Shown: positions 15,750-62,964, numbered from the stretch's first letter. The stretch is DNA of 64,000 bases from an uncultured Nitrososphaerales archaeon (GCA_963713605.1 CAVQMO010000010.1:896001-960000); one strand, 5' to 3'. Made by a program: numbers and translations. Notes: generated by a model from the sequence alone, not told the origin.

Positions 15750-16405
15750 TTGAAAAAGCCCGAAATTGGGTCATTTCCGAGTCCTTGCGCTACCACAAAA
15801 TGACTCCGAAAGCAAGGTCACTACTGTGACTCCGGATACGGTAAAGGTTAGTACTGCGAACAAGGCCACTGCGACTTTTTGGGAAATATTTGTCCTCATT
15901 GCAGACATTACTCCACTTTTCAATTTTCCCTTTCTCAATTGCAGCCTCAATATCTTTGACATGAAAGACGTTATCAATTAACCCAAAATATTTTAAATTG
16001 TACTCTCTTAATGAACCCCCCATAAGTGTAATCAAATAATAGCCTTTTGTAGAGGCAGGTAGATTCAGACTCCAGCCACGCCATATATCGCAGCATAAAC
16101 TCTGTCACGCCTAATCCAGTGGCTTTCTTAATCCATACGTGTTTGTTTGACTGTAGTGTGTCAAATAGCAATTGTTCATAGTCAAATAAGGGATAGGATT
16201 GCCCATTCTCTTCTGGGAGTCCGATGGCATGATTAAATGTGTTACTGGATGTGAGAACTTTAGCCGGTATCACAGCAAGTTGGGGCGGCTTAGTAGACCA
16301 GTCGTAGAAAGGTAATCCCTTCAGTCTATCAAACTGTTGGACGTCGGCAATTTCTAATTGGGATTCGTACTTATCCAGTATTTTCGACAGGTTCTGCAGA
16401 GTCAT
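15750..16405 (-). pseudogene. Terminase large subunit-like gene, internally deleted and frameshifted
   Basis: YPLFDYEQLLFD (adenine-binding region), WIKKATGLGVTE (Walker A variant), then CLYKRLLFDYTYG and REYNLKYFGLIDNVFHVKDIEAAIEKG in the next frame; Walker B region absent. Confidence 0.65.
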
Positions 16406-16737
16406 CTATCACTACTTTGTCAGTGTGGGGCATTAAGCCTCTTTGTTGATGAGATTCACTGCCGTCGCAACTGTTCGTCGTATCCAGCCACGACGATCTA
16501 TTCGTCCTATTTTGTGATCGGAGAAATTTCTTAGTTGATATTTAATGGGAGTTGATCATACAGTCTGTACGCTATATCGAATCTTTTCAATAATCCATTA
16601 TTTGAAAAGATGTACATTATAGATGTCAACTTACAAAGCAGACAGCTTACAGTTTTCCAACGAATTGAACTTGGTCTGAAAAAGAAACCAATACTTCAAG
16701 AGCTGGTTAGCTCAATGAATCATTAGGTGGTAAGGGT

Positions 16738-17331
16738 GTGCAGACTCCCATACTTTTAGTCAATACTGTAAGACCGTTCGTAGAACAACAACAATACTTT
16801 TTTGATATGTTATGGAAGAAGGCAATCCCTGCCAGACGGAGAATTAAAGAGATTGAAGAGAATCTGAAAAGGGAATTTATCGAGACAATCCAAGACACGG
16901 AAGAAACTACGACCCTTATTTCAAAAGTGTTGTCCTCTGCGACTGATGAAATACAAATGATATATTCGCGCGCGAGTACATTAAGACAGTATGAAAGACT
17001 TAAAATATTCAATATTTTGAGAAAAAAGGCAGAGAATGGTATTGTCACTCGAATACTGATTGGTACAGACAATCCAATTAACAAGAGAGAAGTAGAATGG
17101 TTAAATGAATATCCTCAAATAGAATTACGTTACCTAATCAAATCGATAAAAACTAGACTGACAACAATTGTAACTGATAGAGAGTTGTTACTCGTAATTG
17201 AAGAAAAAGAAGATGAAGATATTGATGATTTAGGACTGACCACTTATTCGAATAGTGAATCAACAGTTCTATCTTGTGCCTCTATCTTTGAGAACCTATG
17301 GGCACAATCCACTACTCAGAGCCCACAATAA
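16738..17331 (+). CDS. Sensory domain of the type found at the N-terminus of thaumarchaeal histidine kinases (TrmB/PLD-like); no kinase domain, probably partial
   Basis: FVEQQQYFFDMLWKKAIPA, TYSNSESTVLSCASIFENLW. Confidence 0.7.
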   Translation: MQTPILLVNTVRPFVEQQQYFFDMLWKKAIPARRRIKEIEENLKREFIETIQDTEETTTLISKVLSSATDEIQMIYSRASTLRQYERLKIFNILRKKAENGIVTRILIGTDNPINKREVEWLNEYPQIELRYLIKSIKTRLTTIVTDRELLLVIEEKEDEDIDDLGLTTYSNSESTVLSCASIFENLWAQSTTQSPQ

Positions 17332-17395
17332 TGGGTTGACTTATCGAATGAAAAATAGTTGACCTATCGTCATCATAATAGGGACAATCAGAGAT

Positions 17396-17409
17396 ATTTG
17401 CGCGCAAAT
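17396..17409. repeat. Perfect palindrome ATTTGCGCGCAAAT; related copies at 17628, 18370, 18849, 49739
   Basis: Read directly. Confidence 0.8.
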
Positions 17410-17671
17410 TTCAATTATCATCGTTATCGTATACAAGTATGTCAATTGAAAAGGTAGGCGATCAGGGGTAGATAGGATGTCGAAAGGGTCGCCCACCCTT
17501 ATGGTCTCTGTTTTCACTAAAGGCGATCTCTATATAGAACTAAACCTAATGGCCATTTCGTAATTAGATCATTTAGTAGTATCATATACATTCCTACAAT
17601 GATTTCTAGAAGGAAGAGTTTTTCCGTTTTTGCGCACACGGTGTCAGTGATAGTTGACTGGATAAACTCAC

Positions 17672-18313
17672 ATGCATGCCAGACAACCTTTATTTTTGTC
17701 CTCATTGGAGATAGTCCAGTTGACGCCAGAATACTGGAATAGGCACATAGAGAGATGGATGGATGTATTTTCAGATTACGAACCAGATCTAATGGCACTA
17801 AAAATAGTGAGGGAGTTTGATAACTTGACAAAGAAATTCTACAGTATTTTTGATGATGATGATCTGAATGAATGGGGCAAGTCCTCAGAGATTTACGTGG
17901 GTATCAGAAGTGAGGTCGTTAGAGAAGAGGTGGGCGTTGTTCTAGACAGTTCTTATCCTGTTGCCAGACCGAACAAAAATGCAAAGGTAAGGAAATTCAA
18001 AAGAAAGATTGAAACTCTACCAGTTTCTGGTAAGGCCGTTAAGTCCCGAATCGAAAAAGTAGAACAGGACTCTTCCGAGGATGTAATTGTATCTGATAAG
18101 AACATCAAAATAGCGTTCCAACTTCCTATTAACAATAAGAAAGAAAACGTCAAGGTTGTTGCCAATCAAGATTACTCGATTACAATTTCCCATCTAAATA
18201 ATGAAGGGAAACGATGCACCCATACACTAGACATTCCTTATAATATTGACTCCGAGACCGCCAAGGCGACTTATAAAAATGGGATATTAGAGGTTAAATT
18301 CGATAGACGATAA
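17672..18313 (+). CDS. Hsp20/alpha-crystallin family protein (start may be downstream)
   Basis: C-terminal AKATYKNGILEVKF. Confidence 0.8.
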   Translation: MHARQPLFLSSLEIVQLTPEYWNRHIERWMDVFSDYEPDLMALKIVREFDNLTKKFYSIFDDDDLNEWGKSSEIYVGIRSEVVREEVGVVLDSSYPVARPNKNAKVRKFKRKIETLPVSGKAVKSRIEKVEQDSSEDVIVSDKNIKIAFQLPINNKKENVKVVANQDYSITISHLNNEGKRCTHTLDIPYNIDSETAKATYKNGILEVKFDRR

Positions 18314-18390
18314 ATAATTTGATACCAGTTAACATGATGAAGTATCCCATCTAATTAATCTCTCATGTTTTTGCGCGCAAATCTAATATT

Positions 18391-18720
18391 CTATGCATCA
18401 GTCGCAGATTCGCAAACATCTCTAGTATTTCCTTCGACGGACATGCATCCATCTATGAATCCCTGATAGTATCTATTGTCACCATTAAGAGGTCCGCAAT
18501 TATCCTGAAATGCATCTTCACTAAAACTTCCGTTTCGTCCGTCATCATATCCTACGCTATAACAACCACCTTCGCTACTTACATTGTTGTCAGAGTTGTC
18601 GTTATTCTGTTCTGTTGCAGACGCCATCGTTATTGGAACTGTAAGTGAGGTTAATACAAGAAGTATAACGGTCATAATTTGGGTTGTCCTACTTCCGAGT
18701 TTACGATTCCAATTGTCCAT
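18391..18720 (-). CDS. Secreted small Cys-containing protein
   Basis: Signal peptide; CYSVGYDDG...YYQGFIDGCMSVEGNTRDVCESATD. Confidence 0.7.
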   Translation of the reverse strand: MDNWNRKLGSRTTQIMTVILLVLTSLTVPITMASATEQNNDNSDNNVSSEGGCYSVGYDDGRNGSFSEDAFQDNCGPLNGDNRYYQGFIDGCMSVEGNTRDVCESATDA

Positions 18721-18921
18721 TAATTGATATTTTAGTTTAGGTACAAGATTAACATTCTCTATCAAGACTATAGAACAATTTAAAATCAGAAACTGACGAC
18801 TCTATTAACAGATTAACCTACATTGAGTCCAAATCTTACCTTAGGGATTTTTGCGCACAAAATACTCAAGAAAACCTTCGAAACTCTTATTCAAGAGTGT
18901 CCATAGTACCTACCAAAGAAT

Positions 18922-19308
18922 TTGCAGTATTACATAGGATGTTCCGGATGGTCCTATTCATCTTGGCAAGGACCATTCTATCCTAGGGGTATTGAAAATT
19001 CTAAATGATTAAAATATTACTCGAAGGTCTTCAACTTCGTTGAAATTGACTCCTCATTTTACAGAATTCCCAATGAATTTATGGTAAAGAATTGGTACAA
19101 TAGGACTCCAGAGAACTTTCGATTTACTGCAAAATTCCCTAAAGTTATAACCCATGACAAGAGATTGTTGGATTTTGATGAAGATCAATTAAGTTATTTC
19201 TTTTCCTCTATATCCGAATTAAAGGAGAAATTACTTGCATTATTGATTCAGTTACCGCCGAGTATACAGATTGTAGGCCAGTACAATCCCAGAAAATCCA
19301 CTGGATAA
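18922..19308 (+). pseudogene. DUF72 family protein, TGA at 19006 and truncated
   Basis: YIGCSGWSY...VEIDSSFYRIP...FRFTAKFPKVITH...LIQLPPS. Confidence 0.85.
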
Positions 19309-19460
19309 AGGTGTTGCTGCAAGAATTATCACTATGGCGACAGAGTCGTAAATTGGATTATTTTCATATTTGTAGACAGTTGGTGACTTGATGGGAATAA
19401 GGAATCTGGTACAGACATCTAAATGAGTGTAAATAATCATAACCAAAGATTATCAATCAC

Positions 19461-19476
19461 TTAGGTACTTGTACCA
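19461..19476 (+). promoter_or_regulatory. 16-bp motif TTAGGTACTTGTACCA upstream of a TATA box
   Basis: Matches four copies at 20965-21162; TTTATA begins at +8. Confidence 0.7.
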
Positions 19477-19574
19477 TAATGCATTTATATTGCAAATATA
19501 CCGGAGAAATCATGATCTTGCATTTCGTAGGATATTATTATTTTTGTAGTTTTCTTGTTGAGGACTGCTAGATT

Positions 19575-20117
19575 GTGGATGAGCTTGGAGATATTGCTGA
19601 GAGGATATCACAATTTATTCAGCAGAATCCTGGCTGCCACCTACGTAAAATTAAGGTGATGACGCACATATCTTTGGGAACAACTCAATATCATCTGGAC
19701 AGATTGGAGAAAATGGGAAGGATATCATCTACCAGACTTGGATTTTATAAACATTATTTCCCCATTGGAATATTTCACGAGAATGAAAAAGAGATCCTAA
19801 AAGTTCTAGGTCAAGAAACTACTCGAGAGATTCTGATGTCGATCATAGAACGGCAAGCTCCTACCCAGACAGACATAGCTAGTAGCGTAGGAATATCAGC
19901 CGCATCAGTTAATTGGCATATAAAACATTTAATTAAATTCAGGCTGATCGAGGAAGTTAAAGAGGGCAAATACAAGAGATATCAATTACATGATAGAGAA
20001 ATCTCATCTAGGTACATTATCGTATTAATGCGAAATTACTATCCAAACATCTGGGACAAGTGGAGTAATCGACTGGCTGAAATCTTTCTTTCCTTGTCCA
20101 GAGGAGATACTCAATAG
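19575..20117 (+). CDS. Double winged-HTH transcriptional regulator
   Basis: IQQNPGCHLRKI...GTTQYHLDRLE; second HTH TQTDIASSVGISAASVNWHIKHL. Confidence 0.88.
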   Translation: MDELGDIAERISQFIQQNPGCHLRKIKVMTHISLGTTQYHLDRLEKMGRISSTRLGFYKHYFPIGIFHENEKEILKVLGQETTREILMSIIERQAPTQTDIASSVGISAASVNWHIKHLIKFRLIEEVKEGKYKRYQLHDREISSRYIIVLMRNYYPNIWDKWSNRLAEIFLSLSRGDTQ

Positions 20118-20119
20118 AA

Positions 20120-20456
20120 ATGATAATCGGACCAGAGATAACGTTACTGATAATGATTTCAGCACTATTGCTTCAAGTCTTTGAAGATGTAGAAACTGTA
20201 ATCATCGCAGTCACAGGAATTTTTTCTTTGTTACTACTAGCACTATCTATTTCAGCGTATAGAAAAACAGGTCTCAGGAAGATATTGTACAGCGGCTGCA
20301 GCATTCGCCCTCTTTGGCATTCAATTGTTATTTGAATCATTTGAAGATACATTCGACGTATGGGATACTGGCTTTGGTTCCGTGATAACAGCTTCAATGA
20401 CTTTGGCTATTCTGATTTTGTTCTTTCTAGCAATAGTACAAAAAATAGATAGATAA
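20120..20456 (+). pseudogene. Small 3-4 TM membrane protein coupled to the regulator, frameshift near 20290
   Basis: ALSISAYRKTGLRKILY continues in another frame as AAAAFALFGIQL...ILILFFLAIV. Confidence 0.7.
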
Positions 20457-20656
20457 GAGAATAAAATCTTAAACAAGCTAGTAACTATACACGACCTCAC
20501 ATATCATATTAACGAATTGATACCTGTGGATTAAGAAATATTTTGATATATTCTGAATTACACTCTGAGCCCCTTCATGATCTATAGACGCTCAATGAGC
20601 TAAAAAAAGGAGATATTGAATCTTTTTCTTACAATATCTATTATGTGCACAGTGTT

Positions 20657-20926
20657 TTAGTCTTCCTTTTCATTTGTGTCTACATCTCCTGGTTCATCTT
20701 CATCCTCGCCTTGTCCTTCTTCTTCACCTTCATTGGCATCATCATTTTCGCCAGTACTAGATGCTAATCCTGTCATATTTGTCATATTAGTGGTCTGACC
20801 TGCTGCGGTGTCCGCTGTCTGTGTAGCATTTTGTGCATATGCCTTCATGGAGATCCCAATAGACATTATTGCCACCGATGCTAGCATCAGGATCACCATT
20901 GCTCTGAACGGGTATTTTATTTGCAT
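20657..20926 (-). CDS. Secreted protein with acidic tail
   Basis: Signal peptide ending AYA; D/E-rich C-terminus. Confidence 0.75.
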   Translation of the reverse strand: MQIKYPFRAMVILMLASVAIMSIGISMKAYAQNATQTADTAAGQTTNMTNMTGLASSTGENDDANEGEEEGQGEDEDEPGDVDTNEKED

Positions 20927-20964
20927 TAAAATAACCTAATGTTTATGGATGTTAATAAGAAAAT

Positions 20965-21162
20965 TGATACAAGTATCTAATTATTTCACAAACTTTGCTA
21001 ATGATATTCATCATTCAATTAGATGCTTGTACCACAAAGTTTTTATATATGCAATAAATGTAATTACGAATCTTGTTGATATAATAGGTTTATGATACAA
21101 TTATCTAAACGTTCGCAAATATAATATCATAACTTTTCGTATTCATTTAGCTGCTTGTACCA
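20965..21162. promoter_or_regulatory. Divergent promoter with four copies of TTAGnTRmTTGTAYCA
   Basis: 20965..20980(-), 21019..21034(+), 21093..21108(-), 21147..21162(+). Confidence 0.75.
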
Positions 21163-21199
21163 GATTACTTATTAATTGTAGTACCGCATACTTGATTCA

Positions 21200-21943
21200 A
21201 TGAAAACAAAATCACTTTGCGGATCTAATGTAATCTACATGATAGCATCCGCCGCATTAGTATCAGCAATCATACCATTTATTAGTTCCACTACTCCGAC
21301 GGTAATAAATGCACAGAATGAATCGTGGACAAGCTCATTTAACATGGGAGATTGTAAGTTCTCCACTACAGGCACTAATCCATACTTTATTCTACAACCC
21401 GGTTATCATCTTGTATTTGCTGGTGTAGAAGATAGCGAGCCCCTTAATGTGACTGGAACAGTAAGTAATGAGACCAAAGTAGTTGGAGATGGGATAGTCA
21501 CAAGAGTTGTTGAAGAAAGAACTGTTAACAGCGAAACGAATGACCTAATAGAAATCACCAAAGGTTATTTTGCCATAAGCGATAAGTCAAATAGTGTATT
21601 CTACTTTGGGGAAGATGTTAATAATTATGAAGACGGTAAACTCGTTGATCATGAAGGGTCATGGCTGCATGGTTTTGATAACACAAAGGCTGGTCTAATA
21701 ATGCCTGGAACTATCTTACTTGGTTCGAGATACTTTCAAGAAATAGCTCCAGATGTGGCATTGGATAAAGCCGAGCTAGTGAGTATGAATCAAACGGTGA
21801 GTGTTCCTGCTGGCAACTTTCGTGGTGTAATACAAATGAATGAAACAAGCGATCTCGAACCAGGGATAGGGGAGGTAAATCTACATGCTCCTGGAATTAA
21901 GCAAGTTATAGATAACGATTTGGAACTGGTCAGCTACGGATAA
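21200..21943 (+). CDS. Secreted conserved hypothetical beta-rich protein
   Basis: Signal peptide; NPYFILQPG, VFYFGEDV...HEGSW...AGLIMPG. Confidence 0.8.
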   Translation: MKTKSLCGSNVIYMIASAALVSAIIPFISSTTPTVINAQNESWTSSFNMGDCKFSTTGTNPYFILQPGYHLVFAGVEDSEPLNVTGTVSNETKVVGDGIVTRVVEERTVNSETNDLIEITKGYFAISDKSNSVFYFGEDVNNYEDGKLVDHEGSWLHGFDNTKAGLIMPGTILLGSRYFQEIAPDVALDKAELVSMNQTVSVPAGNFRGVIQMNETSDLEPGIGEVNLHAPGIKQVIDNDLELVSYG

Positions 21944-22080
21944 AATAAGTAAATATCGTACATAATATGCAAAGGCCCGAGCGACTTTATCCTCTCATTT
22001 TTTCCTCCTCTCAGTATCATTGATGTTCAACTTCATTTCATACAAAATATTACTAACTATGGATGGTTCAGAAATTGAGA

Positions 22081-22507
22081 TCCAAAGTATTAGAACTAAC
22101 GGGTAAAGGAGAAACTAATCAATCTTAAATGGCAAGAATACTGCAGGTAGACCGATCCACCATATACAGAGATGTAGATTGGGACCAATAGAGATCGATT
22201 AAGGCAGGAAGCGAAGGAGAACATCAAGAAGTACAATGATGAAAAACTTCCAGAAGAGTACGAGAAAACATTTCGCGGCCTTAACAGCTTCTTACGAGAA
22301 GCATGGACTATGTCGCATGCAAGCGAGACCGGAATTATGGAGAAATTAAAGGCGCTAAGTCTTGCAAAGGGTTGCTATTCAATGAAATTTGATCTACTGA
22401 CTAATGCAACAGTTGTAGACGATGCGATGAGGTTTGTTCAGTCTAATCGAATCTTCACTACCTCAGGAGGCCATCATATGAAATCATTGGATCGATCAAC
22501 GAAGTGA
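22081..22507 (+). pseudogene. HTH + helical protein relic (terminase small subunit-like)
   Basis: SKVLEL...RILQVDRSTIYRD (HTH), LRQEAKENIKKY...LPEEYEK...CYSMKFDLLTNATVVDDAMRFV; paralog at 61290. Confidence 0.55.
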
Positions 22508-22860
22508 ACAGAATGAAACGTGAGCAAATAGATAGGTCATCATAGCATGGTTGTTACTCGATAGGAACAGCGGGTTTACAATAATCCTAAATGTTGAAGA
22601 TAGAGAGTTCGTGGATCTCTGCCAACCGGGATGATAACCTGTTCAGAATCATTGACATGAATTGAATTTATCATCTTTATTGAATTAAGCTTAATGCGTC
22701 AAGTACAGAATAAGGGATAGAAGTTAACGGCACTAATTTAGAGTTGGCATAGCGGGGGTAATAAACAGTCAAAAGAGCAGATAAGTAGCCAGAAGCGCCC
22801 TACATTGTTGTGGGATTAAAATATTAATTCATTCATTCTTATTGTAAGCTTAGCTTGTAA

Positions 22861-25387: not shown

Positions 25388-25600
25388 ATGAAGACTGTCA
25401 ACATGAGTAATTTTCCACCCAGATGTTATTATTGTGATAGTAAAGACTTTGGCACGGTTGACGGATATGAGCGTCACATCGTAACTAGGCACCCAAACCT
25501 GCCCGGTTACCCTGGACCTGCAGATATCAAGTATTACCGCTTAGAAAAACAAGACATGTACTGGGAACGTGAGATAAAAGCGGATTTTGAATGGAAATAG
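25388..25600 (+). CDS. Small CxxC...HxxxxH Zn-finger protein with PGYPGPADI motif
   Basis: CYYC...YERHIVTRHPNLPGYPGPADI; relic paralogs at 58267 and 62800. Confidence 0.7.
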   Translation: MKTVNMSNFPPRCYYCDSKDFGTVDGYERHIVTRHPNLPGYPGPADIKYYRLEKQDMYWEREIKADFEWK

Positions 25601-28876: not shown

Positions 28877-29297
28877 CTATTGCCCGATAGTTCCATTAGT
28901 CGCTAGTCTCAACACCGGACTAAATGTACCACCATTGTCAGTGCTAAATCTTAGCACTGGCTCAGAGCTTGTAGAATTTGTTTCCCACCAAGTTACGATT
29001 ACGTTATCATCAGTAGCTTCTACATCGACGTCAGTTGAATTGGAACCAGGTGAATTGCTCAGATTAACTTTATCTTGGTATATTTGTCCACCATTTCCCG
29101 ACATTCTAAACATAACCTCCGTGTTCTTAGTAACCGGATAACTGCTATCCAGCACAACATAAACGGTTTCACCAGATGTAGCAATAACGGCTGGAGCTTG
29201 TTTCAGTGAGACAGCTGCGTATGATGACTGCAACTTTACTCCCGAATATTGCTAATACGACCACAGCAATAACAAACTCGGCAAGGTATTGTTTCAT
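28877..29297 (-). pseudogene. Secreted BNR/sialidase-like repeat protein, deleted and frameshifted
   Basis: Asp-box-like STDNGGTFS; VNLSNSPGSNS; signal peptide in another frame. Confidence 0.6.
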
Positions 29298-35310: not shown

Positions 35311-35399
35311 GTAGAAAAAGGAGATGGTACCCGGATAAGGAAGCAACTTCATTTGATGATTGCTTTGACGCTCTCAGGATGAGTTTACTTTTCTGGCAT
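35311..35399 (+). pseudogene. TerL-like C-terminal tip relic A
   Basis: VEKGDGT/DKEATSFDDCFDALRMSLLFWH. Confidence 0.65.
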
Positions 35400-39126: not shown

Positions 39127-40204
39127 ATTTCTACTAGGTGGCTAACATGCTATACTTATGTGAATTAAGCAAAATCAGTCGATTACATAAATCTGATATT
39201 TATTCTATTAGAACAACCTCAAGACAACAGTCCTCGTAACACGTTATTCTAACATTAGAGATTGCCACTTATGGAGATTATGATTACTAATTCCTAATTG
39301 TAATTTTTCGAATATTTACCTAGATGACAATTAGTGATTATCCTTAGTTACCCCTACCTATCTATTTAGTGATTTTTTCACTGCGATGTTATTTAACTAT
39401 GCCTATTTCAGTTAATGTGCCAATCTTGAGACAACCATTCATACTAGGTGAGTAAGTGGGTTGTGTATGGTTCCATCGTGCACCTTACTCACCTATCTCA
39501 TTTTTAGAACGTTTTAATTAATTAATTAATTAAGTGTTGCCGATTGGTAACAGGATTTGAAGCAGCAGATTGAAAGGCAAGAATGTGAATCATGTCTCGA
39601 AGCCTACGAAATAGAAAAGCTAGGGTCAGCCGAATTTCTCCAACCCGCTATTATTCTTCTTCCAGCCTTTTTCTAACTTAGTTACACGTTCTGTAAGTTC
39701 AATTAATTTATTAGTAAAGTCCTCGTGCTCTATTAGACCTAGTAAATGAGCCATGTACCAATTCGGACAGGTATAATGGCAGCTCTCAACGCGGTCATGA
39801 TTTTAATGAGCTGTATTGCAAATAACTGATAAAGTCGAGTTTTGCTTTTCAGGTACCAATGCGGTATCCCAGTCTCTGACTACAGTATTCATGGCACCAT
39901 CATCTAGTAACACCTTTTTATTTCCTGTCATATTTATAAATCCAAAGTAGCCTCCATGATTATTACCTCTATCAATTGTGTCATTCATTTTTAGCGGCCA
40001 ATCCGCTACATCATCCCCCTCTGCATCACAAAGAGGAGGTATTGTATTCTGAACGTCTTTCTCCACATATTTTGATGATAGAGTTGTATTCGCTTGTGCT
40101 CCATTAGGTTCAAGCGCACCGCAATCAGCAACACTTTATTCGAATCCAATAAACTGACTCCGGAGTATGAAGTATATAAGCGTGTGAAATCGTGAAAGTT
40201 TATC

Positions 40205-40314
40205 GTGTCGAAAAGGACATCTATAGAGAATGGCGAAGGGTACCTGGATAAAGAGGCTACTTCACATGATGACCTATTTGATAGTTTCAGGCCGTCTTGC
40301 AATTCTGGTATTAG
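40205..40314 (+). pseudogene. TerL-like C-terminal tip relic B
   Basis: RTSIENGEGYLDKEATSHDDLFDSFRPS/LQFWY*. Confidence 0.7.
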
Positions 40315-41176: not shown

Positions 41177-43258
41177 ATGACTAAAAAAGTATCTAAAGTA
41201 ATAATTATGTTTCTGGTCACGGCGGCAATTTTGACATTGCCGTCGTCGGTGTTGCAGGCTTCGTATGCGCAGACAAATGCGAATTTCAAAGATACCGTCC
41301 TAAGTATGCACAACAATGAGCGCGATGCCGTTAAAGTTCCGAGGCTCACGTGGAACGACAATCTCGCAGCTGCCGCCCAGGCATACGCCAATCAACTAGC
41401 GTCGAAGGGGTACGTATGCATTCCCGGGAATTGTCCGGGGGTTAATTCAGTCCCTCCCCTGCCCCATGGTGCTAAAAACGAGAACCTCAGCTTGGGGTGG
41501 CGTCGGTCCTCCATTCGCCTCTCTGATTCAGAGATGGATCAACGAGAAGTCGATATATAACGGCGGCCCAATTCCGTCAGGACCGAACTATGCCGGTCAT
41601 TACACAGCGATGGTCTGGAAGAGTACGACCCAAGTCGGTTGCGCGACCGCCAGAGGTGCGCAAATAGAGATTCTAGTGTGCCGCTACGATCCCCAGGGTA
41701 ACATGGTTGGACAATACCCGTTTGGTCCTGGTGCAGCCCAACTACCTTTGCCGAGTAGGGCAACGTTAGGGGAGGAGCGGTTGTTCAGCGAACCAGCGGC
41801 AGGTAATGGAGGTACAGGATTTCCACCTACTGGAACAACACCACCACCACCACCACCTACTGGAACAACACCACCACCACCACCACCACCTACTGGAACA
41901 ACACCACCACCACCACCACCTACTGGAACAACACCACCACCACCACCACCTACTGGAACAACACCACCACCACCACCACCACTGGAACACCACCACCACC
42001 ACCACCACCTACTGGAACAACACCACCACCACCACCACCACCTACTGCACCAACACCACCACCACCTACTGCAACACCACCACCACCACCACCACCTACT
42101 GGAACAACACCACCACCACCACTGGAACAACACCACCACCACCACCTACTGGAACAACACCACCACCACCACCACCACCTACTGGAACAACACCACCACC
42201 TACTGAACAACCAGCAGCAGGTAATGAAGGTACAGAATTTCTACCAACGGAACAACCAGCAGCAGGTAATGAAGGTACAGAATTTCTACCAACGGAACAA
42301 CCAGCAGCAGGTAATGAAGGTACAGAATTTCTACCAACGGAACAACTGGCAGCAGGTAATGAAGGTACAGGATTTCCACCAACTGGAACAACAACACCAC
42401 CACCACCACCACCTACTGGAACAACACCACCACCTACTGAACAACTGGCAGCAGGTAATGAAGGTACAGAATTTCTTCCTACTGAACAACCAGCAGCAGG
42501 TAATGAAGGTACAGAATTTCTACCAACGGAACAACTGGCAGCAGGTAATGAAGGTACAGGATTTCCACCAACTGGAACAACACCACCACCACCACCATAC
42601 TGGAACAACACCACCACCTACTGAACAACTGGCAGCAGGTAATGAAGGTACAGAATTTCTTCCTACTGAACAACCAGCAGCAGGTAATGAAGGTACAGAA
42701 TTTCTACCTACTGAACAACCAGCAGCAGGTAATGAAGGTACAGAATTTCTACCAACGGAACAACTGGCAGCAGGTAATGAAGGTACAGGATTTCCACCTA
42801 CTGAACAACTGGCAGCAGGTAATGAAGGTACAGGATTTCCACCTACTGAACAACCAGCAGCAGGTAATGAAAGTACAGAATTTCTACCAACGGAACAACT
42901 GGCAGCAGGTAATGAAGGTACAGGATTTCCACCTACTGAACAACCAGCAGCAGGTAATGAAAGTACAGAATTTCTACCAACGGAACAACTGGCAGCAGGT
43001 AATGAAGGTACAGGATTTCCACCTACTGAACAACCAGCAGCAGGTAATGAAGGTACAGAATTTCTTCCTACTGAACAACCAGCAGCAGGTAACGAAGCAG
43101 AAGACGGAGGCGGAGAGGGCGGAGATGATGCAGATAATGAAGCAGAAGACGGAGGCGGAGACGACGGAGATGATGGCGGAGGCGGAGACGGCGGAGATGA
43201 TGGCGGAGGCGGAGACGGCGGAGATGATGGCGGAGGCGGAGACGGCGACGGAAATTAA
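41177..43258 (+). CDS. Secreted CAP/PR-1 domain protein with Pro/Thr repeats, 15-aa repeats and acidic Gly tail (several frameshifts)
   Basis: HNNER...LTWNDNLAAAAQAYA, ENL, GHYTAMVWKSTTQVGCA, VCRYDPQGN; the repeats continue across frames to TAA at 43258. Confidence 0.85.
41820..43250 (+). repeat. Coding tandem repeats: TGTTPPPPPP units, 45-bp PTEQ(P/L)AAGNEGT(E/G)F(L/P) units, GGGGDGGDD units
   Basis: Read directly. Confidence 0.95.
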
Positions 43259-43769
43259 AGAAGGACAAAAGGATCTTCATTTTTTTATTCTTCTATTTTT
43301 TGCTGCGCTTTAGCGGTTATCATCACTATTCACCGTTTGGAAACCATAACCTCATCGAATAAACGTTACTACACCATAATACGATGCCTCAAAAATATAT
43401 TAGCGATTTCAGTTCCTGCCCTAATGAACCCCATAGATTCATTATATTTGTGTAGAGTCTTTCGATATCATGGGGGAGTGGGTTTTTAGTGGAACTTGCC
43501 CATCTACCCAATTTGTGAAAGTAATTTCTATCATAGACCCCGATTTTTATATCTAATCTGATGGAAAGAGGGGATTTTAATTTATTGAAACAGAGTCTAT
43601 AAATTCTGCAGGCCCTCTGAGCTGTACTCTTGACAGGATCTACATGAGACTCCCGATTAAAATATTGTGGACCAATAAATTCAGAGAAGTTGCTTACATT
43701 TCCTGTATTATTTTTATTCTTTTAGTTCTGTATTCTGTTGTCCTGCAGCGCGACTTCCTCGGTCACTGA

Positions 43770-44000: not shown

Positions 44001-44419
44001 TTCTGTCTTCTAGGCCAACAATAAGACTGAATACCCTTTACGATTGTATAGAACGTGCTCCAGGGATTGTCTAAGAGATATAAATGCTGCATTAATCACT
44101 CCAAATACTACTACTCCTCCCCAGTTACTTTCTATCTTTTTTATATGGAAGGTAGGACCAAAACGGATACTCGTGCTAACCACACACGGGCATCAGTTTT
44201 TACAGGCGCCAACGTGTTCTTGGCAAAACAGAGTCAAAGTTTTAGCGCATAAAAGATTAGGGTTCCATCCAAAGCTTTCTGACTTAATCACTGCATTGAA
44301 ATCGGCTACAGAATGATGAATTTTCTTGAGATAAGACAAAATCTGCATTCAATGATTCGTTTGATAGTTTTAGGCTATCGCTACAATTCTGGCATTAGCG
44401 TATTCTGTATGCTTCTATT

Positions 44420-44806
44420 TCATCGCTTCAGTAGCTCTTTTGATTATCTCTACCCACCGAGATCGCCACTTAGGGGGTTCGAAAAGATTTGCAAAATAGA
44501 GTGTTTCATGGACTTTTTTTATTCTGAAACTCCATGATGGCTACGCCATTGATTGAATGCTCATTATCATTGCCATAGGTGGCAATCAATCCAGTAGTCC
44601 AGAGATTTCCATCTCCACGAATTCGCAGCATTTTATAGGTAACTTTAGTAGGGTAGTGTGCTCTGAGGTCGAATATGTTTTGCTTCCCCCGAAGTCGTTC
44701 GCTGGACTATGGAAATTCTACTACATTCATGTGCTTTCTTTAAATCATGAGCCATTGTGGCTTCCCAGTAATGGTTCAGTGTCGCACGTATTTCTTGGCT
44801 ATTCAA
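44420..44806 (-). pseudogene. SnoaL/NTF2-like protein, degraded
   Basis: Manual translation VVEFP*SSERLRGKQNI...RIRGDGNLW...GVAIMEF...ETLYFANLFEPPKWRSRWVE. Confidence 0.7.
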
Positions 44807-53029: not shown

Positions 53030-53456
53030 CGTCTCACAATTTAGCGTACTGTCATACTAAAACTTTTCGACAGGGGACTAACTGATTCTTTGTTGATGTT
53101 TGGATATGATTAATCAATTTTAACATATTTCCATATGCTTTTGGATTTGTCGAACTCTCATCCTCGATGGTTCCGAATCCCACCGGCTCGTTTCCTATCC
53201 AATGATCTCTATACTAAATGAGACCTATGCATTATGATGAGTCGGCAGCTGGATATAATTGATAGTTTCCAGATCAATCAAGATACGATCACTCAGGGTC
53301 AACAATCAGGAGGGGGCCAAGATGGCCGATTTGATACATTTGTGCAAAGACCTCAGGAACAAAGGCTGGAAGATTGATAAACGGTCCGGCTCGATAAATA
53401 CGCCTGAACGGTACGGATCGTAAGATGTGTGAGCCCCGATCGAACAGAATGCTTCT

Positions 53457-53552
53457 GCAGTCGAAGACAGTTTAAGTAACGTGGATAAAGAAGCAACTTC
53501 ACATGATGACTGCTTTGATGCGTTCAGGTTATCTTTACAGTTTTGGTACTGA
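53457..53552 (+). pseudogene. TerL-like C-terminal tip relic C
   Basis: AVEDSLSNVDKEATSHDDCFDAFRLSLQFWY*. Confidence 0.7.
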
Positions 53553-54126
53553 TACCCTTTTGTTTATGAATCTTGACTCGCTATAACTAAATGTAATGAG
53601 GTAGATGTATAGGACTAGTGAGCCAAACGTATGGATCTTGTGACAACAACAACAACAACAACAACAACAAACTCGCAGCGACAACAAGAACAACAACAGC
53701 AAGGATATGGCCTTGGCACTAGAGGCCCAACTAGTACAAACAGTTGAAGAAGCACAAAGAGTTATCGAGAAGTACCACCTAATAAATAACAGTTAGCCGT
53801 AATAACACGTACCAGAAACCTCTTTTTTTAATATAGACGGATGAGTCTGCAGTTCTGGCATTGATCTAGGTCTTTGATACTTCGGTAAGGATGTCTCCAA
53901 CCGTGTCCTCACTGCAATCAGTCTAATCTTACTTAATGCTAGGATCGCATCCATTTCATCCATTTCGATACGGCGTGACGGACTGCCTTCCCTTCTGGAT
54001 ACTGTTACGATATAGCCATAAGCTTGATCATCGAAGTGGCATACCATAGAATTGATGATCGGATGATATGAACTAGGAACCAGGATGTCCTTGCAGTTCT
54101 TGCGACCTGATTTTACACTGTAAGCG

Positions 54127-54543: not shown

Positions 54544-54575
54544 TTATGGGCTTCTCTTAGTGATTTCCCTACCTC

Positions 54576-57059: not shown

Positions 57060-57326
57060 ATGTCTCCAAAAATATTGGCTATAATCTTTATTGGAGGAGG
57101 TATATTACTTGTCTTTGCCTTATCCGGCTTCCAAGTAACAAAACTGTTTTCTCCAGGGATTACCGAGGAAGTAGTTGTAAGCGCCAAACAAAGGGGATCG
57201 TGTATTGTTGAGGCATCTGACAGAGTCCCGAGAGAAATTTCAAATTGTCCTTACGAGGAAGGTGAGAATATAATTATCACTTATAAGGCTCAACAACCTT
57301 CAATCGAATCTCATAGAACTCTGTAA
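57060..57326 (+). CDS. Small membrane-anchored protein
   Basis: N-terminal TM helix, OB-like beta region. Confidence 0.65.
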   Translation: MSPKILAIIFIGGGILLVFALSGFQVTKLFSPGITEEVVVSAKQRGSCIVEASDRVPREISNCPYEEGENIIITYKAQQPSIESHRTL

Positions 57327-57729
57327 TGGACATCGTGTTTTTTGTCATTGCGTAATCTGAAAATTCTCCTTAATTTTGGCATATTCAACTTCGCTTGGTG
57401 ACTCGATACGGGAAAAAATTGAATTGGGCGATAGTGAAGATGATGCTAGCGGAATCACAAGATCTTTCCTTGCAATGAGGCATAGATGATGCATCCTGTT
57501 ATTATCAAGATTTAATGCTAGTGATTAAATTTGTGATTAGTCGCAAGCCGATCCTATAACCGCTTATGCCCATGTCAGTTTAGGATTACCCTCTTTCTGA
57601 CATATCTCGATAAATAAGTGACTTATTTCGATTTTACATAGGGAAATTTAAGAATGGGTTTTGAGTATTATATCCAGGTAATATGCTATTAGTCGCAGGC
57701 CGTAAGAGGCGTATCAGCGGTGAGTACTT

Positions 57730-57966
57730 ATGAAAAACGACCACCAAATAGTCACTACTAATGAACTAATAGGTGTGGAGATAATAAAATATCTTCTTTC
57801 AAGGCTTGTAGTGGACCACGTTGGTATTGAGAGAATGGCGGAAGAGCTTGACCACGATGAAAAACTAGTTTCAGAGGTCTTAGATTTTTTTATAGATATA
57901 GGTTGGATTAGGCAGAACACAAATGGGACCTATCGAATAACATCGAAGGCCATCGAAAGAACATAA
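57730..57966 (+). CDS. Small winged-helix-like protein
   Basis: FFIDIGWIRQNTNGTYRIT; paralog at 31415. Confidence 0.7.
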   Translation: MKNDHQIVTTNELIGVEIIKYLLSRLVVDHVGIERMAEELDHDEKLVSEVLDFFIDIGWIRQNTNGTYRITSKAIERT

Positions 57967-58266
57967 TAAGCGTGTATGACTATTAGTTTCTATACTTCTG
58001 ATAGAGACGATAAAATTGTAATGGTAATTTGAGTTCTCATCTCAAGTGGTTTTCGATCTTGTGATGTAGATTCTGTTCTTATTTTAGAATCACACGTAAT
58101 TGTATCAATGAAGTTTACAAGAGCTAAAATCAAAATATAATAAAGACAGTCCAGGGTAGTTTAGTGGCAGTGCATTAAGTTAAACTAATTTACTGGCAGG
58201 CTAGTCAGCATTACGTACTCAAGTAAAATAAGATTTCAATTTGCTAATCGAGCGTCGAATGGCATA

Positions 58267-58410
58267 TGTCATAACTAGCGAAAGACATATTTTTCTAATG
58301 TAAGTGACCATCTCGAACGGCATGTTGTAGTTCATCACCTAGACTTGCCGGGTTACCCGGGGCCTGCAGACATCGAGCTTTATGGTCTGAAGAAGCAGGG
58401 TATATATTAG
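58267..58410 (+). pseudogene. Zn-finger PGYPGPADI relic
   Basis: LERHVVVHHLDLPGYPGPADIELYGLKKQGIY*. Confidence 0.7.
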
Positions 58411-58779
58411 GATGCAACCCTATAATGGGTATTAGTGGATATTAATGTCAATAATTACCGAATATTTATATAGAAAGGGGAAGGCAACTAGCAGAAATGA
58501 AGTTCTTATCAAAAGCAAAAAAAGAGATCGTTTGTGCTCTAGTTAATTGTGGCTGCCGTGGTAGAATAGAATTCAGGCGTGAATTCGAAGCATTTCTTTG
58601 TGATAGCCATCTCATGTGGGCGATTAGAAAGAACTGGGGCAGTTATGAATAACGAGAATCTCAAATAATTCCGATTATGATTCATTAGACATAGGAAAAC
58701 GATTACGTCCCTACGGTTTATTTGTCAACCGCTATTACAACTAGGGTACATGTGAGGATAAAATCGTTAACTTCTTAAT

Positions 58780-58915
58780 GTCTCTGACCGGGTCTGAAAG
58801 CCAGCCAAAAAGATCTTCCAGAACTTTGTTCCATTGGTCCATAAGCAGTCAACCATTGAGATGAAGGAGAGAACATATGTCCAAAGTCAGGATATGTTTT
58901 CAATGAATGTAAGTT
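58780..58915 (-). pseudogene. Alpha/beta hydrolase C-terminal fragment
   Basis: HSLKTYPDFGHMFSPSSQWLTAYGPME. Confidence 0.55.
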
Positions 58916-59414
58916 TGAGTCAAGAGCCACACCCATAACAGGCTCTTATGCTTTGTATAATAGCGTCAAAGTTTTTGTTACAGTAATTGAATGATACTAA
59001 TCTACAATTCGAAGCCTGATTGCTGCTTTGTGACAGGCTTATCGCATATAAAAAATCTTTCCCAAAAATCCCTGGATCTAAAAGCTTGTTTATTCCGTTG
59101 TCGGCTAACACATCCCCATTGGCTAGTGTTGAAGAAATCATTGTTGCTCCAATGAACCCTAGCATTATCATGACACAAATATAGTCCCATTCAATCCTAT
59201 TTCTAGGCAGAGTAATTAATATTTAGAATCTTCTTAAACCTGTTTATGATTCGTCAAATTCATTTATTATCACCAATACAAAATCCTATCTGGAGTCAGT
59301 TCTTGCTTGAACATCAGTTCTTGCTGACTCATCGTACATGTATTATACTCAACAAGCTACTTAGAGAGAATTGATAGACCGTCATTGCCAATCAGTTGAA
59401 TTGCCACTCTCATT

Positions 59415-59808
59415 CTAATATATAGTGCTTGCTACTATCTCAATTAGATTAGCTACTTGAATTGGCTTTTTAATGTATTTTACAATATACTTGTATTCCT
59501 CCAATTCTTTTACAAGTGTATTATTTAGATCATAAGCTGAAATAAGAATTATTTTAGTTTCATTATATTGCTTTATTGTACGAGCAACAAAATCGCCAAA
59601 CATATCCCCTAATCTATAGTCAAGTAATATCAAATGAATTTTGTTACCCCGATTCTTTTCTTCTATGAATCTCGCAACACACTCTTCACCAGAACTAGTC
59701 AAAATTATGTTGTATTTGGACTCCAGAGCTGAGCTTAAATAGTTGAAGCACGTCCCGTTCATCATCACAAACCATTACTGTTTTCTTTTCTGGTGCAGGA
59801 TTTGACAT
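59415..59808 (-). pseudogene. Response regulator receiver, frameshift near 59740
   Basis: KTVMVCDDE + ILLDYRLGDMFG...LISAY...IKKPI. Confidence 0.85.
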
Positions 59809-60360
59809 TATTATGATAAATTATATTATGTATTAAATTATTAGGTGGTAAATTCTGTTCCAATTACTATACTAAGTGAGAAAACATCTATTTAGCAATC
59901 AACTGTATTTCCAATTATTCCTGGTCTGATGATGCATCAATATCACTGCTAGATGATATGATTGGCTGGTCAGCAAGTTGAGCAAGCACTTCGGTCTGCA
60001 CGTGGTTATTTAGTATAAATTCTTGATCAGTTGGTAAATCCTATATACACTATAATGAAAAAATGTAAAGTAGATTTCAGTGACCGTTCTTGGATTTGAA
60101 GCCCGATGAAATTCAGAGTAGCGGGGACGATCCTTAAATATTTTGATATATGACTCATTACACAATTTCTGTATAGCCACTCGTCTTACTTACACTCCTG
60201 CAGAAAATTTTAAGGAAAATAACTCGGCTCACCCGTCTTGCTTCTTCTCAATGGCTGATTCATTCGACAGACAGGTCCTCTGCGTATTAATCAAGGACCT
60301 GTCCACATGAAGCATTAATTATTGCTCCAGTCGAAGAGTTTGCCCGGTCAGAAGCAATGG

Positions 60361-60603
60361 AGGCTGCTTACCTACTTTACGCTTAATAGATTTTGAACTA
60401 TCTTAGACATGTCAGTACACCCCTAGCTAGTCAATGATGTCAGGATAGTTCAAAATGTTCTAAAATGCTTTCTAAAATGAAAAGCAACTATCCATCTGTA
60501 TCCATCCTTCACGATGTTATACTGTTATTTGGTACCTATTGATAGGCTGCTTACCTACTTTACGCTTAATTGATTTTGAACTATCTTAGACATGTCAGTA
60601 CAC
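60361..60603. repeat. 60-bp direct repeat (60361..60420, 60544..60603) with a partial inverted copy between
   Basis: One mismatch between the copies; ATTTTGAACTATC at 60390 vs GATAGTTCAAAAT at 60444. Confidence 0.9.
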
Positions 60604-60689
60604 TCCTAGTGTGTGTTGAAATTGAAATATTAAAAGCATCAACATGACAAAACACAGCCTCACTAAACTCGCTCCCCAAAGCAAGAATG

Positions 60690-61290
60690 GTGAAGCTAGA
60701 TAGCGAAATTGATCGCCCGCGATGGACGGATCTAATAGCTATAATGCCTCCAATCTTTTTTAAGACGCTTGAATTTCTTAAGGCAGTAAAGCCTGATCCT
60801 GTTACTGGTAGACCAGACGAGTCGTCCATGGACTCTAAACGCAGTACAGATAGCTAAGAACCTTCCAGCTCCGGTCAGTTTTGCCCAAACTATCTTTCAC
60901 GCTATTCACGCGTTTCTATTTGTAAATGCAGTGGATAAGCCACAGTACGCCAGATATCACTGGGAGCCTGAAGCAGGAGTTGCTAACCAGAAGCTGGAGG
61001 AACTTCAGAATAAACCGTCATCGTATCTCTTTGAAGAGTTGGAAGAACGGCTGCGATAAGCGCCAGTGGTTCAATCTAGTCCTGCAACTTGCCGAAAAAA
61101 GCGATCCTACTGACGATCCGACATCACTATGGCCAGACGAGCATCGTCGCGTACGCATAGGGCGACGACAGTCGAAGAGATCGGCATTCCCGTAATGCTA
61201 CAAGATTCTACTCGCCTTACAGATGGCATTGAACCATCTGATGATCCAATCCTAGCTGTGCGTCGCGGCGTCTATGAAGTCTCAGTGCAA
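60690..61290 (+). pseudogene. Catalase-related peroxidase (SrpA-like), degraded C-terminal half
   Basis: KPDPVTGRPD, PVSFAQTIFHAIHAFLFVN, LQLAEKSDPTDDPTSLWP, DGIEPSDDPILAVRRGVYEVS. Confidence 0.75.
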
Positions 61291-61552
61291 AAGCTACCAG
61301 AAATGTCTGGTTGGTTTTGATAACATCCTGGGTAAGATATGGGATATTGCTAATAATCAGGACTCTTTGGAAAGGGACAGGCCGAAAGCGGTCTCTATAG
61401 GAATGCAAGCATATGGTATGAAGATTGATCTTTTGTCCTCGGCTACTATGGTGGAGAGAGCAGTTCAGTTTGTGGAGAGTCATCGCAAGACCAATAGTAG
61501 TTCGACTTCCCAAAACGACGCTCAAAACTTGACTATGAGGACCAGGGTTTGA
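61290..61552 (+). pseudogene. Second TerS-like relic (C-terminal part)
   Basis: YQKCLVGFDNILGKIW...YGMKIDLLSSATMVERAVQFV. Confidence 0.6.
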
Positions 61553-61890
61553 AAGACCAAAACGAAGTAGAAAAACAGTATTAACTAGACTCTCATAATC
61601 AGGGAATCTTGAAGTTCGACTTTTCTTTTATTGTTTCTATCATACTTATCACGATGGAGAACATCAAATAAGACATTATTGTAATTATCACTGGAATATC
61701 TTAGATATTGGCATGTTATTGGCAGTTAATCATAGGCATAGTATATTTCTAGTAGTATCATATCACGTGTCAAAGCGTATCAACATTGACGCGACACTTC
61801 TGCAGAGTTAGTTTAGATGGCTCTTTCACTGACCATTATCTGAAGCATTGGTCTCATCAATGATAAATAATACCAGATGATTATTAGAAT

Positions 61891-62728
61891 ATGAATGATC
61901 AAAAAGTTGCCGTTATTACCGGCAGTTCCAGTGGAATTGGATTAGAATCTGCACTTTTATTAGCACGTAATGGTTACAAAACGTATGCTACGATGCGGTC
62001 TCTAGAAAAAGATACATCCATAAAAACAGCAGTACAGAATGAGGGTCTCCCCATTAGGGTTGTCCAGCTAGATGTTACTGATGAGAGTTCAGTGAAGAAT
62101 GCGATAGGGCATATAATATCTGAAGTTGGCAGGATAGATATCCTCGTAAATAATGCCGGCTATGGGCTCGGTGGCGCGTTAGAGGATCTTTCAATGGAAG
62201 AGATCAAGTCTCAGTATGAAACCAACTTATTTGGACTGATAAGAGTCATTCAGGCAGTTCTACCCACAATGAGAAAACAGAAATCAGGTAGAATTATAAA
62301 TATAAGTTCGGGTGCTGGTCTCTTTGGTTATCCCGGAGGTTCAGCTTATGTTAGTACTAAATTTGCAGTTGAGGGTCTGAGTGAATCTATTGCATATGAA
62401 TTAGAACCATGTGGAATAAAAGTTATCTTGATAGAACCTGGATTTATTAGGACTAACTTTGGAAATGCAATGGTCATAGCCAAAAAAGCGCAAGACTCGG
62501 CATCGCCATACTCTGAGCTGATGCAGAAATCTATGGCTAGTACCGCTGAACTGGCAAAGAATGCATCTGATGCAGAATTAGTTGCGAATATTGTCCTGGA
62601 TGCTGTTTTCGGATCCACGTCCCCGTCTCCGATATCTGGCAGGTAAAGATGTAGAATCTTGGGCTGCAGGTAAGAAAAATATGGATGAGCTTGAATTCTT
62701 TAATATGATCAAGAGGCTTACAACCTGA
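61891..62728 (+). pseudogene. SDR oxidoreductase, late frameshift near 62620
   Basis: TGSSSGIG, NNAG, YVSTK, IEPG; RYLAGKD tail in another frame. Confidence 0.88.
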
Positions 62729-62799
62729 TAATTGTAATTTAGGCAAAATCTTTTTGCAATAGTTCAAGTATTATCGCAGAATCGAGGCTATTGATAAAC

Positions 62800-62964
62800 A
62801 TGAGCGGCTCTTTCCCAAAATGCTATTATTGCTATAGCAAAAACTTCGGCTCAGTTGACGACTATGAGCATCACGTCGTAATTAGACACCCAAAGTTGGC
62901 CGGATGTCCCGGGCCAGCGGATATCAAATAATACTGCTTAGAGCCTAAACGATATTCCATCTAA
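62800..62964 (+). pseudogene. Zn-finger PGPADI relic
   Basis: MSGSFPKCYYCYSKNFGSVDDYEHHVVIRHPKLAGCPGPADIK*. Confidence 0.75.

Follow-up and report, generated by a model that had tools for sequence, protein, structure and literature searches.

We analysed a 64-kb window of DNA, positions 896001-960000 of contig C10 in the source genome G000 (an uncultured Nitrososphaerales archaeon), that contains scattered pieces of genes for a large terminase (TerL), for a helix-turn-helix (HTH) protein in the position of a small terminase (TerS) and for a zinc finger. In the following, C denotes contigs of the genome named and L denotes retrieved loci. A sequence-only reading of the window had assigned nine such pieces to one family of repeatedly inserted mobile elements, and all nine were present, with profile or paralogue matches far above chance. 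An internally deleted TerL-like pseudogene on the minus strand matches positions 1-106, 235-252, 273-311 and 478-497 of the TerL profile and has tblastn paralogues. It consists of an N-terminal 143-residue open reading frame (ORF) at 15974-16405, a middle piece and a C-terminal tip at 15223-15282, and the gaps in profile coverage indicate two internal deletions. The deletion had been recognized before, but the gene had been given as 15750-16405 and extends further, over 15223-16405. Solo C-terminal tips of TerL lie on the plus strand. Three of them, noted earlier at 35311, 40205 and 53457, were confirmed by the profile at 35334-35399 (profile positions 477-498, also supported by alignment), 40196-40297 (460-493, with a degraded end) and 53454-53546 (467-497). 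A fourth tip at 44330-44395 (477-498) was added; after it, up to about position 44770, the minus strand carries the decayed remains of a SnoaL-like gene. The copies had been described as mutually diverged, and the window tips indeed share 50-77% amino acid identity; they are therefore not assembly duplicates.

The two TerS-like relics, reported at 22081 and 61290, were detected by tblastn with the intact HTH proteins of related loci as reference. The first (22078-22492, plus strand; E = 2.8e-37, up to 67% identity) is frameshifted, the second (61289-61486, plus strand; E = 2.1e-12) represents the helical region, and neither is followed by TerL. The zinc-finger family had been listed as three relics. 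This held for the plus-strand fragments at 58279-58407 (62% identity over 34 residues to the copy at 25388) and 62743-62928 (66% over 50 residues). The copy at 25388-25597 on the plus strand is no relic; it is an intact 70-residue C2H2 zinc-finger ORF with the motif PGYPGPADI that aligns with residues 689-743 of the protein encoded at L013:4464-6692 (E = 7e-8). A weak integrase-like relic of 23 residues was found on the minus strand at 9462-9530 (tblastn E = 2.3e-5, 65% identity to the integrases of cluster 4). As had been stated, no portal or capsid gene was recognizable when 82 ORFs of the window were searched against Pfam.

Intact relatives of the TerL pieces were obtained by a protein search, which returned 3909 homologues, mostly of ~500 residues and nearly all unnamed, from Nitrososphaeraceae metagenome-assembled genomes (MAGs) and soil metagenomes. 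The proposed terminase identity was checked with profiles and with a structural model. The PHROG profile phrog_2 (terminase large subunit) matched the best G000 copy with E = 1.9e-17 and intact relatives with E values down to 7e-22. Terminase_6C matched the proteins of L014 and L008 with 32.3 and 26.4 bits, respectively, at a cut-off of 22.6. A profile search of the sequences of solved structures with the TerL family retrieved no terminase; these were found by the fold search alone. For an AlphaFold model of one intact TerL (pLDDT 85.5), the top Foldseek matches were all large terminases, namely T4 gp17 (E = 6.6e-19), Sf6 gp2, D6E and HK97, and further matches comprised T7, a herpesvirus terminase and isolated ATPase and nuclease domains. 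Both domains were covered: the ATPase domain of T4 gp17 (2o0h) superimposed with a root mean square deviation (rmsd) of 3.2 Å over 235 columns, and the RNase H-like domain matched the nuclease domains of G20c and SPP1. The motifs KKATGLGxTE, LDEADFF, GxDPxxGSS, DGANP and HDDxxD were invariant or nearly so in an alignment of 50 sequences. Asp-315 and Asp-375 were invariant both there and in an alignment of 18 sequences, whereas Asp-484 was invariant and Asp-481 nearly so in the larger alignment, with the reverse in the smaller one. The P-loop is deviant and contains no GKS/T; lambda gpA also has a deviant P-loop. Judged from profiles, motifs and model, the family is a large terminase with an ATPase domain and an RNase H-like nuclease domain.

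The ratio of nonsynonymous to synonymous substitution rates (dN/dS) was 0.06-0.11 in the 15 closest of 630 pairs among 36 intact genes, and its median was 0.076 over the 47 pairs with dS < 2. Pairs with low ratios include paralogues within one MAG (L043/L050; L008/L011/L013). This strong purifying selection indicates that TerL encodes a functional protein in other genomes, with only the G000 copies being dead. A sample of the family Nitrososphaeraceae gave a TerL match in 64 of 81 genomes and 17 of 18 genera, a tally that includes the unpublished genomes G035 and G077, both matching. Many genomes of the family had at least ~20 scored matches. One genus was without a match in all seven of its genomes, four of which are single-contig assemblies. 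Five of 151 genomes matched in a sample of the class (including the unpublished genome G210, which matches), and two of 80 in the neighbouring family.

A scan of 185,579 species genomes yielded 79 loci, all in Nitrososphaerales-type MAGs and often several per MAG, and 1200 crude ORFs from these loci were clustered. The parts that are dispersed in the window co-occur there in intact loci, as the sequence-only reading would predict. The HTH protein of ~170 residues was present in 34 of the 79 loci and is usually encoded by the closest upstream ORF that shares the strand of TerL. Two clusters of tyrosine integrases were present in 21 and 6 of the 79 loci, and in six loci (L008, L013, L020, L027, L064 and L065) an integrase gene precedes TerL on its strand, at a distance of 9.2-11.4 kb from the TerL end. 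Recurrent upstream genes in some loci encode a D5-like helicase (D5_N/DUF5906), a PriX-like primase or a Rep-like protein of ~600-880 residues. Among the conserved partners of TerL, genes for integrases and for replication proteins are the most frequent. With an integrase and a replication module of their own, a small size and no complete virion gene set, the loci have the gene content of virus satellites. Between copies with 80-93% nucleotide identity, similarity comprises TerL and sometimes the HTH gene, and it ends at the TerL stop or within about 50 nucleotides of it. In a search for attachment sites, exact repeats of at least 13 nucleotides between the TerL end and the flanks were few and mostly due to coding similarity; only the one in L064 is adjacent to an integrase, and no clear att-like repeat was found in L079. 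Comparison of the two ends of the TerL unit in five loci gave no terminal inverted repeat scoring above 10. The DNA between the HTH gene and TerL encodes a histidine kinase and a response regulator in L014 (L014:6498-11488) and a patatin-like phospholipase in L029, L028 and L070. A defence island directly follows the intact TerL of L013 (L013:11529-21446), with GmrSD-HEPN, a HerA-like ATPase and the R subunit and methylase of a type I restriction system.

The HTH protein adjoins TerL on the upstream side and shows an N-terminal HTH, helices and a flexible tail. HTH, helical oligomerization core and flexible tail are the general layout of TerS. In the structural model, the HTH is followed by long helices at residues 45-95 and 99-138 and by a disordered acidic tail that ends in a conserved NxVF. 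Its Pfam matches to HTH and sigma-70 region 4 families were mostly below the cut-off, with one ECF sigma match just above it. The Rep-like protein of ~750 residues resembles primase-type or plasmid-type replication proteins in a protein atlas, which we take as a lead only. Its last 55 residues are the part that aligns with the zinc-finger ORF of the window, which connects the third family of relics with the element. The connection is only partial, because the best-preserved stand-alone zinc-finger copies in G000 lie 18-74 kb from any TerL or HTH relic. The stand-alone family comprises 45 protein clusters of 47-100 residues, most of them of 58-91 residues. A 743-residue protein that single-linkage clustering had placed with TerL is unrelated to it and looks like a replication protein.

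Head genes were searched for around the intact copies. PHROGs comparisons of 150 ORFs of at least 110 residues, taken from the 7 kb that follow intact TerL at 35 loci, gave no portal, capsid, head protease or tail match at E ≤ 1e-5. The label "head and packaging" was attached to two of these ORFs, one a HerA-like ATPase and the other an HNH protein, and four ORFs encode integrases. Pfam searches of 149 ORFs from eight loci detected no capsid, portal or tail family and one ClpP-like SDH protease. Apart from the HTH protein and the integrases, no cluster was present in more than 12 of the 79 loci. With TerL identities of 50-80% between copies, head genes linked to it would be expected to form clusters as well, and no such cluster was seen. 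Pfam Phage_capsid and Phage_portal had no match in the whole G000 genome, which is 87% complete, and a viral major head protein used as query matched in 3 of 81 family genomes, G000 not being among them. The HK97-fold major capsid protein and portal of a complete Caudoviricetes provirus were thus not recognized at the TerL loci searched. The sequence-only reading had left room for intact copies that always lie within complete proviruses; they do not, since they occur in loci without recognizable head genes.

Viral contigs and a provirus served as controls. IMG/VR contained only distant TerL relatives (30-42% identity, 36 loci), and four of the five viral contigs examined carry portal, minor head or major head matches after TerL. 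A complete-looking head-tailed provirus was noted in genome G079 (L142; G079:C1:2236001-2256000). Its gene order is TerL, a 470-residue ORF, major head protein, minor tail protein and tail-completion protein, and the head protein, 57% identical to the viral-contig query, is encoded about 4 kb after TerL. The TerL of this provirus is 42% identical to the family over 477 residues. KKATGLGxTE, LDEADFF and GxDPxxGSS recur in it, whereas DGANP and HDDxxD are altered to VDSAHP and SFDLGD. The provirus is possibly the published Nvie-Pro1 of Nitrososphaera viennensis, an identity that is our guess. A true provirus with a related TerL and head genes is thus present in the same archaeal family, and the capsid-less loci are something else. 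An element family without recognizable head genes probably exists.

The scale of decay was assessed in G000. A copy count by tblastn had been recommended with the original assignment; the peptides of three window tips detected 96 loci, with 230 residues for the longest open frame holding a tip, and ten query pieces detected 104 loci, none of them with an intact TerL. Three of the 104 loci contain all parts (C10:220801-222723, C10:9772-11789 and C3:73125-74819), each frameshifted or stop-bearing; 61 retain the C-terminal part alone and 15 the HTH part alone. A TerL profile was built from 17 intact homologues and used for a six-frame search of 465 kb around the 104 loci. It gave 81 loci, of which 53 reach position 495 or beyond and 35 start at positions 450-480, and the density of 5' break points increases toward the 3' end of TerL. 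Easier detection does not account for the excess of tips, as TerL is best conserved at positions 180-290. Two tip subfamilies were distinguished, one ending in FWH followed by the stop, the other in CNYEPPKN. DNA similarity within the FWH group ends at the stop codon, and the profile starts of the group B tips cluster at positions 416-422. Integrase relics lie directly upstream of truncated TerL pieces, on the same strand, at C1:715.4k, C10:466k and C10:1124k, and one tip abuts the interior of another TerL copy. Directly downstream of group B TerL relics, a multicopy family of secreted proteins was observed (C10:4802-9527 and C3:71952-72906, partly L002 and L003), with a signal peptide and a conserved region of the form ARPTNNIVNT...YKVTVTTRN. 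Near-identical copies of a tip plus its flank occur near contig ends (C13:11076-11283, C2:89653-89860 and C12:388973-389159) and possibly represent a repeat, either collapsed or duplicated recently, at which the assembly breaks.

Taken as a whole, the pieces of the window can be explained as the dead remains of many independent copies of satellite-like integrative elements, an explanation to which we assign a probability of about 0.5. In substance, this supports the earlier one-family interpretation. Going by the best-preserved relatives, a unit would measure roughly 9-11 kb and start with a tyrosine integrase. An optional replication module would follow, either D5-like helicase plus PriX-like primase or the ~750-residue Rep-like protein with its terminal C2H2 zinc finger, and the unit would end with the ~170-residue HTH/helical protein in the TerS position and the ~500-residue TerL. 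Such an element, without portal, capsid and tail genes, would reside integrated in the manner of a virus satellite. When a head-tailed helper virus builds procapsids, the element would excise and replicate, and its own HTH protein and TerL would cut its DNA and pump it into the helper capsids. A provirus of the G079 type is the candidate helper on account of its 42% identical TerL. In the window zone, elements and accessory cargo may have piled up in the same orientation and then decayed, with the last 20-40 TerL codons surviving best. We consider this satellite mechanism plausible; helper dependence, packaging and the origin of the tips are inferred.

Several points weigh against the satellite explanation. 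The helper virus is conjectural, and divergent archaeal capsid genes could escape both Pfam and PHROGs. The architecture varies: L039, L071 and L080 have the integrase directly adjacent to TerL, and in L014, L029 and L070 accessory genes stand between the HTH gene and TerL, which means that this spacer also takes up cargo. The borders are undefined: the sole candidate is a 13-bp direct repeat in L064, 140 nucleotides before the integrase and 37 nucleotides after the TerL stop, which is weak alone and possibly due to chance. The HTH protein had no TerS profile match in Pfam or PHROGs and is TerS-like by position and architecture only. Its best Foldseek match was the G20c TerS with a nonsignificant E value of 0.43, and a VIA comparison with the same protein gave Z = 7.8 and an rmsd of 8.5 Å, in the range of unrelated helical hairpins. 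It was also unlike the ORFs upstream of TerL in a viral contig and in the G079 provirus (hhalign probability 0.3). Finally, the satellite idea alone leaves the excess of 3' tips over all other parts unexplained.

The arrangement of the tips was therefore considered separately. Of the pairs of adjacent tips less than 10 kb apart in G000, 37 share a strand and 6 do not. Arrays comprise eight tips in 18 kb at C10:1112-1130 kb, six in 10 kb at C10:541-551 kb and the four in 18 kb of the window, and in three tip arrays with a spacing of 355-386 bp the spacers are mutually unrelated. All six strict solo tips detected by profile at loci with an intact TerL lie downstream of it on the same strand, and a looser tblastn list gave the same picture. 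One or two accessory genes separate TerL from the next tip in L009, L010, L012 and L029; those found between TerL and tip encode a polysaccharide deacetylase, a cupin, a PsbP-like protein and a PhaC-like hydrolase. At C10:642.9-643.6k and C14:28.8-29.4k, a SnoaL-like gene lies between two tips, and the decayed copy in the window likewise follows a tip. The tips differ from each other by third-position changes and by TCN/AGY serine switches. Differences of this coding type imply that each tip derives from a different, once-selected TerL gene and that the tips are not copies of one DNA site.

Three possible origins of the tips were weighed, namely insertion at the 3' end of TerL, one-sided deletions at the end of a neighbour in tandem arrays and a cis-acting site in the tip. 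Repeated entry of other DNA into the TerL 3' end, either with a replacement end or by one-sided homologous anchoring, is a possible, though not a probable, explanation that concerns the arrays only. Phages 21 and e14 in E. coli icd are precedents for 3'-end insertion with a replacement end, and deletions adjacent to insertion sequences are precedents for one-sided deletions anchored at a neighbour's end. The downstream, same-strand position of the solo tips, the strand bias of adjacent pairs, the short accessory cassettes in the four loci and the clustered starts of the group B tips agree with such entry. On the other hand, no integrase was found between TerL and the next tip in L009, L010, L012 and L029, and a shared core motif was not apparent: in the DNA after 66 tip stops or before 60 5' breaks, 8-mers and 10-mers were not shared above shuffles, except for one 8-mer carried by paralogous flanks. 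Nor was there extra synonymous conservation at the TerL 3' end, where codon identity (0.42-0.46) is like that in the rest of the gene, or a chimeric 3' end among intact TerL genes, as tip identity was 0.79 compared with 0.80-0.84 for the body in 27 close pairs.

The third origin would make the TerL 3' end a working cis site, at which the terminase starts cutting or packaging and from which it runs downstream; we regard this as improbable. Fragments starting with TerL may then recombine in a new cell through a one-sided homology anchor, and each event may add an accessory cassette behind TerL and shift the old TerL end downstream. Such a course would account for arrays on one strand, for tips with variable 5' ends and for the single genes between them, as well as for the lack of a shared DNA motif or an integrase inside the arrays. 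If true, it would amount to a terminase-driven, integron-like system for gathering cassettes.

For the loci as a whole, the strongest alternative to satellites is that the HTH-TerL pair has another role and that its copies are cargo-like modules of genomic islands. The pair could interfere with viruses, by cutting or mis-packaging the DNA of an invading tailed virus or by occupying its procapsids, or it could act as a resolution or maturation nuclease in replication. We consider this rather unlikely, although HTH-TerL is the sole 2-3-kb unit kept between copies, with both flanks different at 83-93% nucleotide identity, and its neighbours are often defence genes (GmrSD, HerA-like, type I restriction-modification and HNH genes in L013 and L080). 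The variable architectures are in line with it too, and strong purifying selection would suit any function. The prevalence of integrase and replication genes among the conserved partners speaks for an element instead, as does the fact that both TerL domains with their acidic and P-loop-like motifs are kept as in real virus TerL. The pair matched no known defence family, in searches that did not include a dedicated defence search (PADLOC).

That the loci are ordinary proviruses of the G079 type stripped of head and tail genes, with the terminase as a functionless leftover, is very unlikely. A real provirus with a 42% identical TerL does exist in the same family, and all copies in G000 are dead. 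However, the low dN/dS among intact copies, same-MAG paralogues included, the thousands of intact ~500-residue proteins, the same capsid-less layout in 35 loci and the failure to find a portal or capsid relic anywhere in the G000 genome do not fit a leftover.

Least likely of all is a two-gene transposon-like unit in which the HTH protein picks the DNA and TerL cuts and moves it, with one end fixed at the TerL stop and 5'-truncated by-products: the end of similarity close to that stop, the at least 20 matches per genome in many genomes, the 61 of 104 loci with the 3' part alone, the rise of 5' breaks toward the 3' end and the tip abutting another copy's interior would suit it, but there are no terminal inverted repeats in the five loci compared, no motif shared at either break and no near-identical dispersed full copies, many loci have integrases, and the codon-type differences between tips exclude copying from one DNA master.

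The remaining genes of the window form an accessory patchwork of oxidoreductases, hydrolases, response regulators and HTH regulators, several of them split or truncated. The accessory gene termed cluster 6 (28880-29248, minus strand; E = 1.9e-30) is a recurrent TerL neighbour in other genomes and occurs at 26 loci in G000. tRNA and Rfam scans of the window gave no match; the DNA after the tips is therefore no known RNA gene. The window lies within a stretch of ~180 kb (C10:880-1060 kb) in which ORFs of at least 100 residues cover just 42-71% of the DNA, whereas coverage in the preceding stretch (C10:700-860 kb) is mostly 78-90%, with dips to 59% and 71%. Split accessory genes in this low-coding zone include an alcohol dehydrogenase at window positions 4107-5070 and a CAP-domain gene at 41177-42203. 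The region 41400-43400 has a G+C content of 0.45 compared with about 0.38 and a strong AT skew of 0.23; long overlapping ORFs on both strands after the CAP-domain gene may represent a low-complexity secreted protein. Just past the tip that ends at 53546, a short run of one repeated triplet at 53590-53720 would be translated, according to frame, as poly-Asn, poly-Leu or poly-Cys.

Soil ammonia-oxidizing archaea drive nitrification, and to our knowledge their viruses and mobile elements are barely known. Most sampled Nitrososphaeraceae genomes contain a complete, selected terminase and no capsid, and just one such element has been noted in print. If the satellite reading is true, these elements would represent the first satellites of head-tailed viruses in archaea and be among the commonest mobile elements of the group, and archaeal terminase specificity and virus-satellite conflict would become directly testable. 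The relic zone and the tip arrays suggest that the elements are a main entry route of accessory genes (oxidoreductases, hydrolases, regulators and defence genes) into unusually large genomes. The terminase alone is an unsuitable hallmark for calling proviruses in these archaea. The window itself holds relics only, and its contribution lies in how extensive the decay is and in the arrays of co-oriented tips.

Comparison with known systems places the family near several of them. The tip arrays resemble icd-type 3'-end integration and integron arrays, in that same-direction repeats of a 3' end or site are split by short accessory cassettes. Unlike these, the tip cassettes have no integrase within them and no conserved DNA core, hairpin or recombination site at their ends, and the tips have diverged as coding sequence. 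Insertion sequences differ from the family by their terminal inverted repeats, absent from the five loci compared, and the copies have no shared end motif. The G079 provirus shares a related TerL with the same P-loop-like, Walker B and first nuclease motifs and belongs to the same archaeal family; it differs in the head and tail genes that follow TerL and in the C-terminal motif of TerL.

Like PICIs, cf-PICIs, PICMIs and P4-like satellites, the elements are small and integrative, encode an integrase and a primase or helicase and have no full virion set. Bacterial phage satellites depend on the capsid of a helper. PICIs and PICMIs are known to carry no more than TerS, and cf-PICIs combine a terminase with a capsid and a portal of their own. 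The family described here departs from both in having a complete terminase and no recognizable head gene. No published description of this element family was found in the literature searched, which was of limited coverage. According to a 2025 preprint, archaeal satellites known before the SRCEs were limited to pSSVi and pSSVx, and all of them, SRCEs included, are linked to spindle-shaped viruses (10.1101/2025.02.15.638363), not to head-tailed ones. For thaumarchaea, five TerL matches in 21 genomes were listed by Krupovic et al. 2019 (PMC6563490). Among the integrated elements described there, NitKor-E1 of Ca. Nitrosopumilus koreensis AR1 encodes TerS and TerL, an integrase, VapBC and a nuclease, and its authors termed the terminase enigmatic and probably a virus relic (PMC6563490). 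NitKor-E1 resembles the present family in that it is integrated in a thaumarchaeal genome, encodes a tyrosine integrase, has TerS next to TerL and shows no further recognizable gene of a tailed virus. In this comparison by description, NitKor-E1 is a single element of a marine genome, whereas the family described here is multicopy, centred on the Nitrososphaeraceae, under selection and linked to replication genes.

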